NCBI GenBank assembly: GCA_043821645.1
Contig: JBDRCO010000051.1
Location: 96,001-160,000 of the forward strand
Direction: 5' to 3'
Length of the DNA: 64,000 bases
DNA from: Pseudomonadota bacterium
Lineage (GTDB): Bacteria > Myxococcota > JACRCW01 > JAFGSX01
A program made the translations under genes and the position numbers. This document shows, in pieces, positions 1 to 4,578 of this stretch; the stretch's first letter is position 1; every line of letters starts with the position of its first letter. The notes below the pieces were generated by a model. That model searched no databases, was not told where the DNA came from, and saw only the letters and a program-made list of their open reading frames with translations.

Positions 1-1
1 G

Positions 2-280
2 CAGGGCTCCTGAGGTTGCACCGCCGCTCTCGTGTCAGAGCGGAACGTGCCCCCCGGCGGTGAGGCCAAGATCGACGTCACCGTGATCACCTCGGGTCGA
101 CTCGGCCGGATCGGCAAGACGGTGCGCGTGCACTCCAACGATCCCAAGCAGCCCGTGGCCAGCCTGACCATCGAGGGAGAGATCGAGACTCCCGAGGGCG
201 CACTGCCTCCGGCCAAACCACCGCTGCGCCCCCTGGTCAAGGCCGTGGCACCCTCGACCAGCGTCAAGACCACGCACTGA
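2..280 (+). CDS. DUF1573-like (Ig-like) protein, 5'-partial, probable selenoprotein (UGA at 11-13)
   Basis: The frame of ORF 32..280 extended upstream reads Q-G-S-TGA-G-C-T-A-A-L-V-S-E-R-N-V-P-P-G-G-E-A-K-I-D-V-T...K-T-V-R-V-H-S-N-D-P. This matches the DUF1573 pattern (SCGCT...I.PG....I.V...K.V.V.SNDP) with TGA at the first Cys. Confidence 0.8.
18..50 (+). promoter_or_regulatory. Candidate bacterial SECIS hairpin
   Basis: Perfect 7-bp stem CCGCTCT(24-30)/AGAGCGG(37-43) with loop CGTGTC (G at loop position 2), 17 nt after the UGA. Lower stem GCAC(18-21)/GTGC(47-50). Confidence 0.6.
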
Positions 281-1279: not shown

Positions 1280-1976
1280 GCGACACCTCCTCGTCACGCA
1301 GGCCCCGCGCCACCAGCTGCCTGGTCACCAGCGCCGAGCGCCTGACGCTGATCTGGGTCCAGCGCGCTCGCAGCCGTTCGCGCCGCGCGGGATCCAGGTC
1401 GCCATCGCCGCCCAGGCAACGGCGCCGCCCCTGGGCCAGCGTGGACAGCGACAGGGCGGCGGCCACCGACACGTTGAAGGATCCCGTGAAGCCGTGCATG
1501 GGAATCACGAAGCGCCCGTCGAGGTGGCGCCGTGCCACCGGACTCAGGCCCCGGCGCTCGCTTCCGAGCACGACCACCAGCGGGCGATCCACAGGTACCT
1601 CGGCGATGGGCACGGCACCGGCGCCCAGGTCCGCACCCCAGGCCTCGAAGCCCCGGGCCTGCAGCGTCCCCAGGCAACGCGCCAGCCTGTCCTCGACATG
1701 CAGGGTGAGCCAGCGCTCGGCGCCGGCAGCAGCCTTGTGCCCGGGACGCTGCCTCGATCCACGCTGGATCAGGTGGACATCCTGGACGCCGACGGCCTCG
1801 GCGCTGCGCAACACGGCCGCGACGTTGTGAGCGTCGCAGAAGTCCTCGAGCACCACGACCAGGGAGCCCAGCCGCGACTGCAATACCTGCTCGATGCGTC
1901 GCCTCCGCTCGTCCGTGAGCAGGGCCGCCAGGGCCTGCATGGTCTCGCCATCGGGCACAGCACGCTGGGTATCCAC
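1272..1976 (-). CDS. TrmH/SpoU family RNA methyltransferase
   Basis: SPOUT motifs VVLEDFCDAHNVAAVLRSAEAVG, VVLGSERRGLS, IPMHGFTGSFNVSVAAA. Start codon uncertain. Confidence 0.88.
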   Translation of the reverse strand: MDTQRAVPDGETMQALAALLTDERRRRIEQVLQSRLGSLVVVLEDFCDAHNVAAVLRSAEAVGVQDVHLIQRGSRQRPGHKAAAGAERWLTLHVEDRLARCLGTLQARGFEAWGADLGAGAVPIAEVPVDRPLVVVLGSERRGLSPVARRHLDGRFVIPMHGFTGSFNVSVAAALSLSTLAQGRRRCLGGDGDLDPARRERLRARWTQISVRRSALVTRQLVARGLRDEEVSHG

Positions 1977-2046
1977 CACGCACCTCGCACGCTCGCGGCG
2001 CTCAGGCTCATTTGACAGGTGGCGCGGCCTCGCGCAACATCCGCGC

Positions 2047-4578
2047 ATGACGCGTCACACCTGCTTGCTGTTCTCCGTCGCTGTGCTCGGGACCTGGACC
2101 CTGTCCGCAGCACCCGCCGCTGCGCAGGGCCTGGCCGACCCGGTGGCCCTTGGCCTGGCTCCGCCCACCTCCGTCGCCACCGTCGACGAGGCCAGCGCCG
2201 TCCTGGTCAATCCGGCAGGGGTGGGCTTCGTCACCGGACCCGAGCTGATGTTCCTGCACAGCTCCAGCTTCGGCAGTACCCGCAGCGACGTCGATAGCCT
2301 GTACGCGGCGGTCACCCTCCTTGACACCCTGGGCGTCGGTGCCGGCTTCGAGCTGGCCCGACCCGTGGGCAGCACGAGCGCGACGCGGGGCCAGGATTTC
2401 GTGCGCGCCAGCCTGTCCTATGCGCTGCGCCTGGACGACGGATTCAGCGTCGGTGGCAGCTACCATGTCCTGAGCGCCCAGGCCCCGGGCTTGTCCGCGG
2501 TGCAGATGTGGAACCTGGGCTTCCAGGTGCGGCCCTTTCGCTTCCTGTCGGCGGGAGCCGTGGTCGAGAACGTCATCCCGCCCGAGATCGGCAGTGGTCC
2601 CTTGACACCGCGGGCCTACCGCCTCGGCGTGGGGCTGCGCCCGGGCGCAGAGTGGGCAACCCTGGGCCTCGAGGCACGCATCGACGAAGCCTGGCGCGTG
2701 GATCCCGCCCTGCTGCTGAGGATAGAGGCCTTGCCCGGCATCATCGGAAGCGTGCAGCTCGCCACCCGCGACCTGGGACGCGGCTTCGGTGACAGCAGCA
2801 TAGGGCTGGGTCTCGAGATCAACCACGCGCTGTTCGGCGTCGGCACCTCGGTGGCAAGCTCGCCGTCCCTCAACCTGTCCGGGGTCACCGTCTACGCCCG
2901 TGCCTCGGTGGCCGCCTACCCCTCGCTGTTCCCGCGCATGGGCCGGGTGGTCAAGCTGGTCCTCGCCGACGACCTGCGCCCCCTGCCGCCGGAGGATCCC
3001 TGGGAGGCCGCGACCTACGCCGAGGAGATCCCGGGGGAGATCGCCCTGGGTCTGGAGCGTGCCAGCCGGGATGACGCCGTCGAGGCCGTGTGGCTCGAGA
3101 TCCGACCGCTCAGCGCTGGCGCAGCCTCGGTGGAGGCCATGCGACGTCGCCTGCAGGCCCTGCGTGCCGCCGGCAAGAAGGTCTTTGTCTACCTCGAGCG
3201 CATGGGCAATCTCGAACTGTTACTGGCCTCGGCCGCCGATGTCGTGATCATGCCCCCCTCGGGGACGGTGGCGGCAGACGGAGTCGGGACCTCGATGATT
3301 TACCTCGCCGCGACTCTCGAGCGCCTGGGTCTTCGTGCCCATGCAGTGTCCGCAGGAGAGTACAAGAGCGCACCGGAAACCTTCACCCGCACCGAACCGA
3401 GTCCGGCTGCCCTCGAGTCCGAGGGGCGATTGCTGGACGTGGTGAGCGAGGTCCTGGTGAGTTCGGTGGCCCAGGGGCGCGGCCTCGACGAGAGCGCAGT
3501 TCGAGCGCTGCTGGACCTGGGCAGTCTCAGTCCCGCGGAGGCGCGAGACAAGGGCCTCATCGACCGCATCGCTTATGCCGATGAGATGAAGTCCATTCTC
3601 GAAGAAGTGCTGGGGAGCCGCCCCTTGGTCGACGACGACTACCTGCGGCCGCTGGTACACCGCAGGTACTGGGCGCGACGTCCGACCATCGCGGTGGTGC
3701 CCATCGTTGAGTCCATCACCATGGGCCGCAGCTCGCGCGGTTTCCTCGGCATGTCTGGCAACAGCGGCGCCGACGATGTGGTGGCTGCCATCGAGGCCGC
3801 GCTGGACGACGACGACGTCAAGGCGATCGTGCTGCGGGTGAACAGCCCGGGCGGCGACGCCCTGGCCTCGGACCTGATCTGGAGAGCGGTGGAGCACGCC
3901 CGCAGCAAGAAGCCCGTGGTGGCGAGCATGGGTGACGTGGCCGCGAGCGGTGGTTACTACGTGGCCTGTGGCGCGTCGACGATCCTGGCCGAACCCACCA
4001 CCATCACCGGCTCGATCGGTGTGTTCGCGCTGTTCTTCACCGCCGGGGAGCTTCTGACCGACCTGGAGGTGGGCATCCATGAAGAGCGGCGCAGTGCCCT
4101 GGCTGGCTCCCTCTCGCCGATGCGCGAGCCCACGGACGAGGAACTCGCCGCGGTGCAGCGTTCGGTCGACGGCACCTATGCCCTGTTCAAGTCGCGCGTG
4201 GCGGCCGGACGGCAACTGAGCGAAACCCAAGTCGAGGAGGTGGCCCGCGGCCGGGTCTGGACGGGCCGTGATGCCCTGGCCCACAAGCTGGTGGACAAGA
4301 TGGGAGGTCTCTACGAGGCCGTCGCCGAGGCCCGGTCCCTGGCGGGCATCGGCGAAAGCACCGACGTCGAGATCACCGTGTTCGAAAGTGGACAGGACCC
4401 CCTCACGCGCTGGAGCTCGGCGGTGGAAGGGACGCGGGCACTGGTGCGACAGGTCGTGGCGCCACCCCTCGCCGTGGAGCAGCTGGCATCGCAGCTCGGA
4501 CAGGCCGCCCTGCCCCTGGTCCTGGCCGGGGATGGACGACCCCTCGCGCTGATGCCCTACACCCTGCAGCTCCGCTGA
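2047..4578 (+). CDS. sppA: Signal peptide peptidase SppA (S49) with N-terminal beta-strand-rich (barrel-like) domain
   Basis: Two S49 domains: GEYKSAPE (Lys) and LRVNSPGGDALASD, SMGDVAASGGYY (Ser), TITGSIGV, GRVWTGRDA. Signal peptide followed by about 290 aa of amphipathic beta strands (NPAG motif). Confidence 0.88.
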   Translation: MTRHTCLLFSVAVLGTWTLSAAPAAAQGLADPVALGLAPPTSVATVDEASAVLVNPAGVGFVTGPELMFLHSSSFGSTRSDVDSLYAAVTLLDTLGVGAGFELARPVGSTSATRGQDFVRASLSYALRLDDGFSVGGSYHVLSAQAPGLSAVQMWNLGFQVRPFRFLSAGAVVENVIPPEIGSGPLTPRAYRLGVGLRPGAEWATLGLEARIDEAWRVDPALLLRIEALPGIIGSVQLATRDLGRGFGDSSIGLGLEINHALFGVGTSVASSPSLNLSGVTVYARASVAAYPSLFPRMGRVVKLVLADDLRPLPPEDPWEAATYAEEIPGEIALGLERASRDDAVEAVWLEIRPLSAGAASVEAMRRRLQALRAAGKKVFVYLERMGNLELLLASAADVVIMPPSGTVAADGVGTSMIYLAATLERLGLRAHAVSAGEYKSAPETFTRTEPSPAALESEGRLLDVVSEVLVSSVAQGRGLDESAVRALLDLGSLSPAEARDKGLIDRIAYADEMKSILEEVLGSRPLVDDDYLRPLVHRRYWARRPTIAVVPIVESITMGRSSRGFLGMSGNSGADDVVAAIEAALDDDDVKAIVLRVNSPGGDALASDLIWRAVEHARSKKPVVASMGDVAASGGYYVACGASTILAEPTTITGSIGVFALFFTAGELLTDLEVGIHEERRSALAGSLSPMREPTDEELAAVQRSVDGTYALFKSRVAAGRQLSETQVEEVARGRVWTGRDALAHKLVDKMGGLYEAVAEARSLAGIGESTDVEITVFESGQDPLTRWSSAVEGTRALVRQVVAPPLAVEQLASQLGQAALPLVLAGDGRPLALMPYTLQLR

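Follow-up and report, generated by a model that had tools for sequence, protein, structure and literature searches.

Bacterial SECIS elements of the Escherichia coli fdhF type are hairpins that lie inside the reading frame, directly 3' of the UGA codon. The family OS_HP2 was introduced by Zhang and Gladyshev in 2007 (PMC1976440) as a new selenoprotein family, and is described there with two selenocysteine (Sec) members and with no Cys homologue at that time. According to the same account of the Olavius symbionts, SECIS-like stem-loops are present in all of its new families; the legend of Figure 5 in that paper omits OS_HP2. An entry in the 2008 GOS paper reads "OS_HP2, pfam07610, UxC" (PMC2398784), and two reviews, of 2022 and 2026, list a "DUF1573 domain-containing protein, UGC" (PMC9312934, PMC13188914).

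Here we report the analysis of a gene that enters the 5' end of a 64,000-nt stretch of DNA, hereafter the window (G000:C51:96001-160000, where G000 is the genome under study, a 140-contig draft that is 94.7% complete). A preceding sequence-only reading had proposed that the first Cys of a conserved DUF1573 motif is replaced by Sec in this gene. We find that the gene is a further member of the known OS_HP2 / DUF1573 selenoprotein family, in the form of a short putative lipoprotein that is probably unannotated. It shares with the described family the PF07610 domain, a U-G-C motif with the putative Sec in first position, the existence of Cys homologues, and a hairpin 3' of the UGA codon. The novelty that the sequence-only reading implied does not hold, since DUF1573 selenoproteins of the U-x-C type have been in print since 2007/2008 and are represented by an NCBIfam model, NF041425. 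The locus thus adds little new biology, and its value is practical, for annotation.

Gene structure and reading frame

An in-frame TGA codon is located at positions 11-13 of the window on the forward strand, where the second reading frame runs Q-G-S-TGA-G-C-T and continues to another TGA at 278-280, just as the sequence-only reading had described (S-*-G-C-T at the first of these codons). When the TGA at 11-13 is read through, the gene forms a single open frame of 184 codons. The portion inside the window (1..280, forward strand) opens with the third base of codon 92 and finishes with the stop codon, codon 185; the ATG start precedes window base 1 by 275 nt (L001:1226, or G000:C51:95726) and lies 5 nt behind a Shine-Dalgarno-like AGGGAG. 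The 5' part, which was beyond the reach of the sequence-only reading, is an open frame with a start codon, a candidate ribosome-binding site and a putative lipoprotein signal peptide. The N-terminus of the read-through protein is MRVRHLAVCASSILLLVAC, with the lipobox L-V-A-C at residues 16-19 (the signal peptide was read by eye); it is followed by a Pro-rich linker, a single DUF1573 domain and a Pro/Ala-rich tail.

By its frame, and by the alignment column described below, in which 19 matches have TGA and seven have Cys, the TGA at 11..13 (+) corresponds to a putative residue U96 in the motif G-S-U-G-C-T (residues 94-99). The DUF1573 / OS_HP2 Ig-like domain, delimited by PF07610, NF041425 and an AlphaFold2 model, has its first residue, 57, encoded upstream of the window; its C-terminal two thirds (residues 92-154) occupy positions 1..187 (+). 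Positions 188..277 (+) encode the Pro/Ala-rich C-terminal tail, TPEGALPPAKPPLRPLVKAVAPSTSVKTTH, which matched no family; conservation of the tail does not extend to the closest relative, G001, where it differs. The frame ends at the true stop codon at 278..280 (+), also a TGA, after which no hairpin was reported. The only part of the gene that appears in the list of open reading frames made with genetic code table 11 is an artefactual 82-residue ORF with a GTG start at 32..280 (+), whose translation carries no signal peptide; a standard gene caller will consequently split the gene, as had been anticipated. In all likelihood, then, the sequence at 1..280 belongs to an intact gene for a 184-residue putative lipoprotein of the cell envelope with a UGA codon recoded to Sec.

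Family membership and predicted fold

The assignment to a DUF1573-like domain, made from the letters alone in the sequence-only reading, is borne out by profile searches. The read-through protein matches Pfam DUF1573 (PF07610) with 76.8 bits against a cut-off of 26.1, over profile positions 5-98 of 98, and the match (residues 59-153) covers both sides of the TGA codon; a HYDIN/VesB-like Ig domain was also matched in the Pfam profile search. The best and only strong NCBIfam match is NF041425, "OS_HP2 family (seleno)protein", at residues 57-154. The curated cut-off of this model, 100 bits, is not reached by the whole protein (93.2 bits) or by the domain alone (95.5 bits), both scored with C in place of U. 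Nine Sec forms scored in the same manner were divided between four that pass (103-108 bits) and five that fail (92-99 bits). Because the window copy falls just under the cut-off, annotation pipelines are likely to report two fragments rather than one selenoprotein.

The features by which OS_HP2 / DUF1573 selenoproteins are recognized in the literature are present at this locus: the in-frame UGA occupies the first position of U-G-C (UxC) within PF07610, Cys homologues with conserved flanks exist at the aligned column, and a SECIS-like stem-loop is found 3' of the UGA. In the genome under study, the selenoprotein gene encodes the sole strong DUF1573 domain; five other matches (23-34 bits) occur in large proteins and are free of in-frame stops. 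Among the Sec forms, the window gene and its counterpart in G001 stand apart by their shortness: each encodes a putative lipoprotein of about 184 to 190 residues with a single domain, in contrast to the other Sec forms, which have 340 to 400 residues and an extra C-terminal region.

The AlphaFold2 model, built from a 21-sequence alignment (pLDDT 96.0, pTM 0.85), presents the domain as a seven-strand sandwich in which U-G-C (domain residues 46-48) lies in the turn between strands 37-44 and 49-53. By this model the fold is a PapD/HYDIN-like Ig beta sandwich. Among solved structures, Foldseek ranks 2qsv from Porphyromonas gingivalis first (E 4.3e-07, TM 0.84, rmsd 1.9 A) and HYDIN and further Ig domains of the PapD/ASH-like kind next; in total, it gave 42 matches at E <= 0.001. 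These domains, including the HYDIN domain 2e6j (TM 0.76), have the same beta sandwich as the DUF1573 domain, but their sequence identity to it is at most 22%, and the HMMER alignment shows no Cys-x-Cys at the aligned position of 2qsv. None of the 44 Foldseek matches listed is described as a thiol oxidoreductase or a metal-binding protein, and known catalytic relatives of the fold were not found among them. A sequence search of the PDB returned only two matches (E 0.15), uninformative alone.

The TGA codon and its Cys counterparts in related genomes

A search of 41 related genomes with NF041425 as the query gave 37 matches. All seven matches of at least 85 bits carry exactly one TGA, and the 30 weaker ones (<50 bits) carry none. 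In a wider sample of 401 genomes of the phylum, 26 matches in 20 genomes satisfied a threshold of E <= 1e-12, 19 of them with one TGA and seven without. The genomes with matches comprise 17 of the 18 members of family f4, the genome under study together with G001, its one relative in family f1, and one genome of family f30. When the matches were aligned, the 19 TGA codons fell into a single column within G-[GS]-U-G-C, and each of the seven other matches has Cys there. The TGA is thus found at this column in 18 genomes besides the one under study, in all in two families and 15 genera-level groups, and the sequence 3' of it is strongly conserved ([IVL]PPGGE..., SNDP).

The seven Cys matches of the wider sample are mostly neighbouring paralogues. 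Sec-type and Cys-type OS_HP2-like paralogues adjoin one another in four genomes (G045:C11:112906-116382, G056:C84:17125-18945, G066:C156:3438-5088 and G071:C606:4743-6412), the first of which has three copies.

Full-length database homologues are Cys forms with 42-51% identity over the domain and, where named, are called "DUF1573 domain-containing protein". C-G-C-T-A-A is invariant in an alignment of nine Cys homologues from other phyla, and a His at domain residue 25 is nearly invariant alongside both Cys positions. These Cys-type proteins, which occur among others in Ignavibacteria, Aminicenantes and Acidobacteriota, differ from the window gene in having Cys for Sec, in mostly containing a second domain (236-262 residues), and in lacking a recoding signal.

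Selenocysteine machinery and genetic code

Genes for the complete Sec pathway, which the sequence-only reading had proposed to look for, are all present in the genome under study. The tRNA-Sec gene (selC) scores 78.6 bits against a cut-off of 47 and was also called by ARAGORN as tRNA-SeC with the anticodon tca. The genes selA (531 bits), selB (256 bits) and selD (388 bits) were detected as well; selB corresponds to a 651-residue ORF in which GTP_EFTU and the SelB winged-helix domains 2 and 3 are present. The selD gene at G000:C87:204011-204937 on the reverse strand (L020) itself contains one in-frame TGA, and SelD of this organism is therefore probably a selenoprotein. A genome-wide reassignment of TGA to a sense codon was considered and rejected: 28 of the 39 likely genes in the window are terminated by TGA, from which it follows that the genetic code is standard and that TGA is the normal stop codon in the organism.

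By the standard bacterial pathway, SelD would make selenophosphate and SelA would turn Ser-tRNA(Sec) into Sec-tRNA(Sec); SelB would then bind a hairpin placed 10-30 nt 3' of the UGA (window 24-43) and supply the ribosome with Sec. At the second TGA (278-280), which is without such a signal, translation would end.

RNA structures downstream of the UGA codon

The SECIS-like hairpin revealed by sequence and folding at 24..43 (+) has a perfect 7-bp stem, in which CCGCTCT (24-30) pairs with AGAGCGG (37-43), and a loop at 31-36 with the sequence CGTGTC (CGUGUC in RNA). Its description in the sequence-only reading was exact: the loop begins 17 nt after the A of the TGA and has G in its second position. 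Like a canonical SECIS of the fdhF type, it is located directly 3' of the UGA, within the frame, with a loop G near the 5' side; it differs in that no curated model matched the window copy and in that binding by SelB is presumptive there. Scanning the gene region with Rfam at E <= 10 produced three irrelevant weak matches and no SECIS family.

Taken alone, the hairpin at 24-43 is unexceptional in DNA of 67% G+C. The fold of a 63-nt segment has z = -1.16 and is equalled by 27 of 200 shuffled sequences, and about 10% of the local 30-nt windows fold as well as the hairpin does. The minimum-free-energy fold of positions 8-70 is in fact another one, an extended structure predicted at 19..62 (+), in which a 5-bp apical stem is enclosed by pairing of CACCGCC (19-25) with GGCGGUG (56-62); this alternative pairing is not conserved in the relatives. 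The TGA at 11-13 and its hairpin rise above chance because of the relatives, through the pattern of TGA and Cys in the same column and through hairpins at the same offset.

When the 34 nt beginning at +9 after the codon were folded singly, a hairpin was found at the same offset in 19 of 19 Sec forms. The mean folding energy of these Sec forms is -12.7 kcal/mol (z = -1.36 against local windows); for the seven Cys forms it is -8.9 (z = -0.13). The stem sequences of this first hairpin vary by lineage. Pairing was counted in a fixed register on 18 of the Sec forms; G076, with its one-codon deletion, was excluded. In this register the first hairpin is 82% paired, with changes on both sides (compensatory) at three of the six consensus pairs, and the whole structure is 90% paired, compared with 49-71% when the partners are slid along each other. 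The observed pairing or covariation score was attained by none of 500 shuffles, in agreement with a version of the count on seven sequences. RNAalifold applied to the 18 Sec forms did not recover the first hairpin as a consensus, because the register shifts between lineages. By eye, and uncounted, most apical loops also contain a G-U step from conserved Val codons or have it at their 5' edge.

A second hairpin, UUCCCC-CGGGN-GGGGAA, was observed over the codons of I-P-P-G-G-E, about 38-54 nt beyond the U of the UGA (loci L024-L029 and L043-L053; in the window this corresponds to 48-64). It was delineated by synonymous-site and pairing counts, the codons being compared in 17 ungapped Sec forms, without G076 and the contig-end copy in G061. 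The codons of I-P-P-G-G-E are nearly fixed at synonymous sites (ATT in 13 of 13, CCC in 17 of 17, and CCG, GGG and GAA in 16 of 17 each). At the intervening Gly, whose codon makes up the loop, the most frequent codon accounts for just 9 of 17 forms, and other Gly codons of the domain are of three to four types. This hairpin is 97% paired in 18 sequences, with covariation absent; it is kept in 16 of 17 Sec forms, in neighbourhoods of about 57 to 73% G+C, and is absent from the Cys paralogues.

The exception among these Sec forms is the genome under study, where the codons read CCC CCC GGC GGT GAG; the window copy thus differs from the other OS_HP2 Sec forms in missing the second, sequence-fixed hairpin. 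It is conceivable, though unlikely, that the recoding signal of the family has two parts, a variable covarying hairpin and a fixed second hairpin, and that the lineage of the genome under study lost the second and may use the lower stem 19-25/56-62. If functional, for example in ribosome pausing or in stabilizing a complex with SelB, the second hairpin would add an accessory element that is unusual for a bacterial SECIS.

Decoding of the UGA codon

The TGA at 11-13 could be a nonsense mutation, or an assembly or sequencing error, in a DUF1573 gene that once had Cys at this position, which would make the gene a fresh pseudogene. The codon is a single base away from TGC and TGT, the gene is split in table-11 ORF calling, and the genome is a draft in 140 contigs, all of which would fit such an origin. 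A private mutation or error would not, however, recur in one column in 19 genomes that span two families and 15 genera-level groups, be followed by a hairpin in every Sec form, leave the protein conservation downstream intact, and coincide with a full Sec machinery in the same genome. This explanation has a very low probability and is close to refuted. Alternatively, the UGA might terminate translation, any Sec insertion being inefficient or conditional on selenium supply; the product would then be a 95-residue N-terminal lipoprotein fragment, possibly with an 82-residue product from the GTG at position 32. Release factor RF2 competes with Sec insertion in all bacteria, and the GTG-started ORF at 32..280 is available for a separate product. 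Still, half an Ig domain would not be expected to fold, given that strands on either side of the TGA are required in the AlphaFold2 model; the ORF at 32..280 lacks a signal peptide, and the sequence is conserved in the manner of a single protein. We regard termination as the principal outcome as very improbable.

Reading of the TGA at 11-13 as Sec in a real selenoprotein gene is accordingly very likely, and the proposal that the first Cys of the motif is selenocysteine in this protein is upheld, as very probably correct, by the column of 19 TGA and seven Cys, by the Sec machinery and by the hairpins. The occurrence of TGA at the same column in 18 other genomes answers the concern, raised beforehand, that the codon might be confined to this one.

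Putative role of the U-G-C motif and gene neighbourhood

That the CxC motif is a redox or metal site we infer, as does the literature on the family. In the predicted PapD/HYDIN-like sandwich, the selenol/thiol pair would sit exposed in an inter-strand turn, facing the periplasm. We lean, tentatively, toward a redox-active selenenylsulfide site at U-G-C over a metal-binding role. According to the GOS paper, selenoproteins whose function is known are mostly oxidoreductases (PMC2398784), which speaks for a redox centre. With the same decoding as Sec, the motif might instead bind or traffic a soft metal, e.g. Cu(I), in the envelope, and this too is a serious possibility, if one we hold with somewhat less conviction. 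Two Cys homologues (P0015 and P0037) bear the name 'uncharacterized cupredoxin-like copper-binding protein', the nearly invariant His at domain residue 25 accompanies both Cys positions, and the 2026 review includes among its metal-handling selenoproteins a Cu/Zn efflux transporter with a UxC motif (PMC13188914). The names of the two homologues are, on the other hand, automatic JGI assignments and not experimental ones, and no gene for copper or another metal is located near the gene in the genome under study or in the neighbourhoods of five relatives. A literature search on the CXC motif and on selenenylsulfides found nothing specific to the OS_HP2 / DUF1573 family.

The neighbourhood survey covered these six genomes, with 76 ORFs picked by GC3 and scanned with Pfam. 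Neither thiol-redox nor metal genes were found within about 8 kb upstream and 3 kb downstream. Upstream of the gene in the genome under study, on the other strand, are MaoC-type dehydratases and XdhC/MobA. The downstream neighbours identified with Pfam are a MOSC and MoCF_biosynth fusion protein (311-1297, -), a SpoU-type RNA methylase (1272-2048, -) and an S49 (SppA-like) peptidase of 894 residues (1894-4578, +). The S49 peptidase gene is the sole gene common to the neighbourhoods in G000 and G001. We draw no functional link between the Sec gene and its neighbours in the six genomes; the neighbours give no functional clue, and for this reason the question of the role is no more tractable from the locus of the genome under study.

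Several recurrent neighbours were recorded along the way. In the f4 genomes G005 (L062), G045 (L063) and G091 (L066), the long-form Sec gene is divergent from genes for a conserved secretion ATPase (T2SSE/MshEN), an AAA ATPase and a G3P dehydrogenase, and PhoU_div and PHO4 lie downstream of it in G005 and G091. About 5 kb upstream of the gene in the genome under study is a 755-residue FHA-GAF-GGDEF-EAL protein (G000:C51:88638-90905, -; L067), and FHA and PilZ proteins recur near the Sec gene in the f4 genomes.
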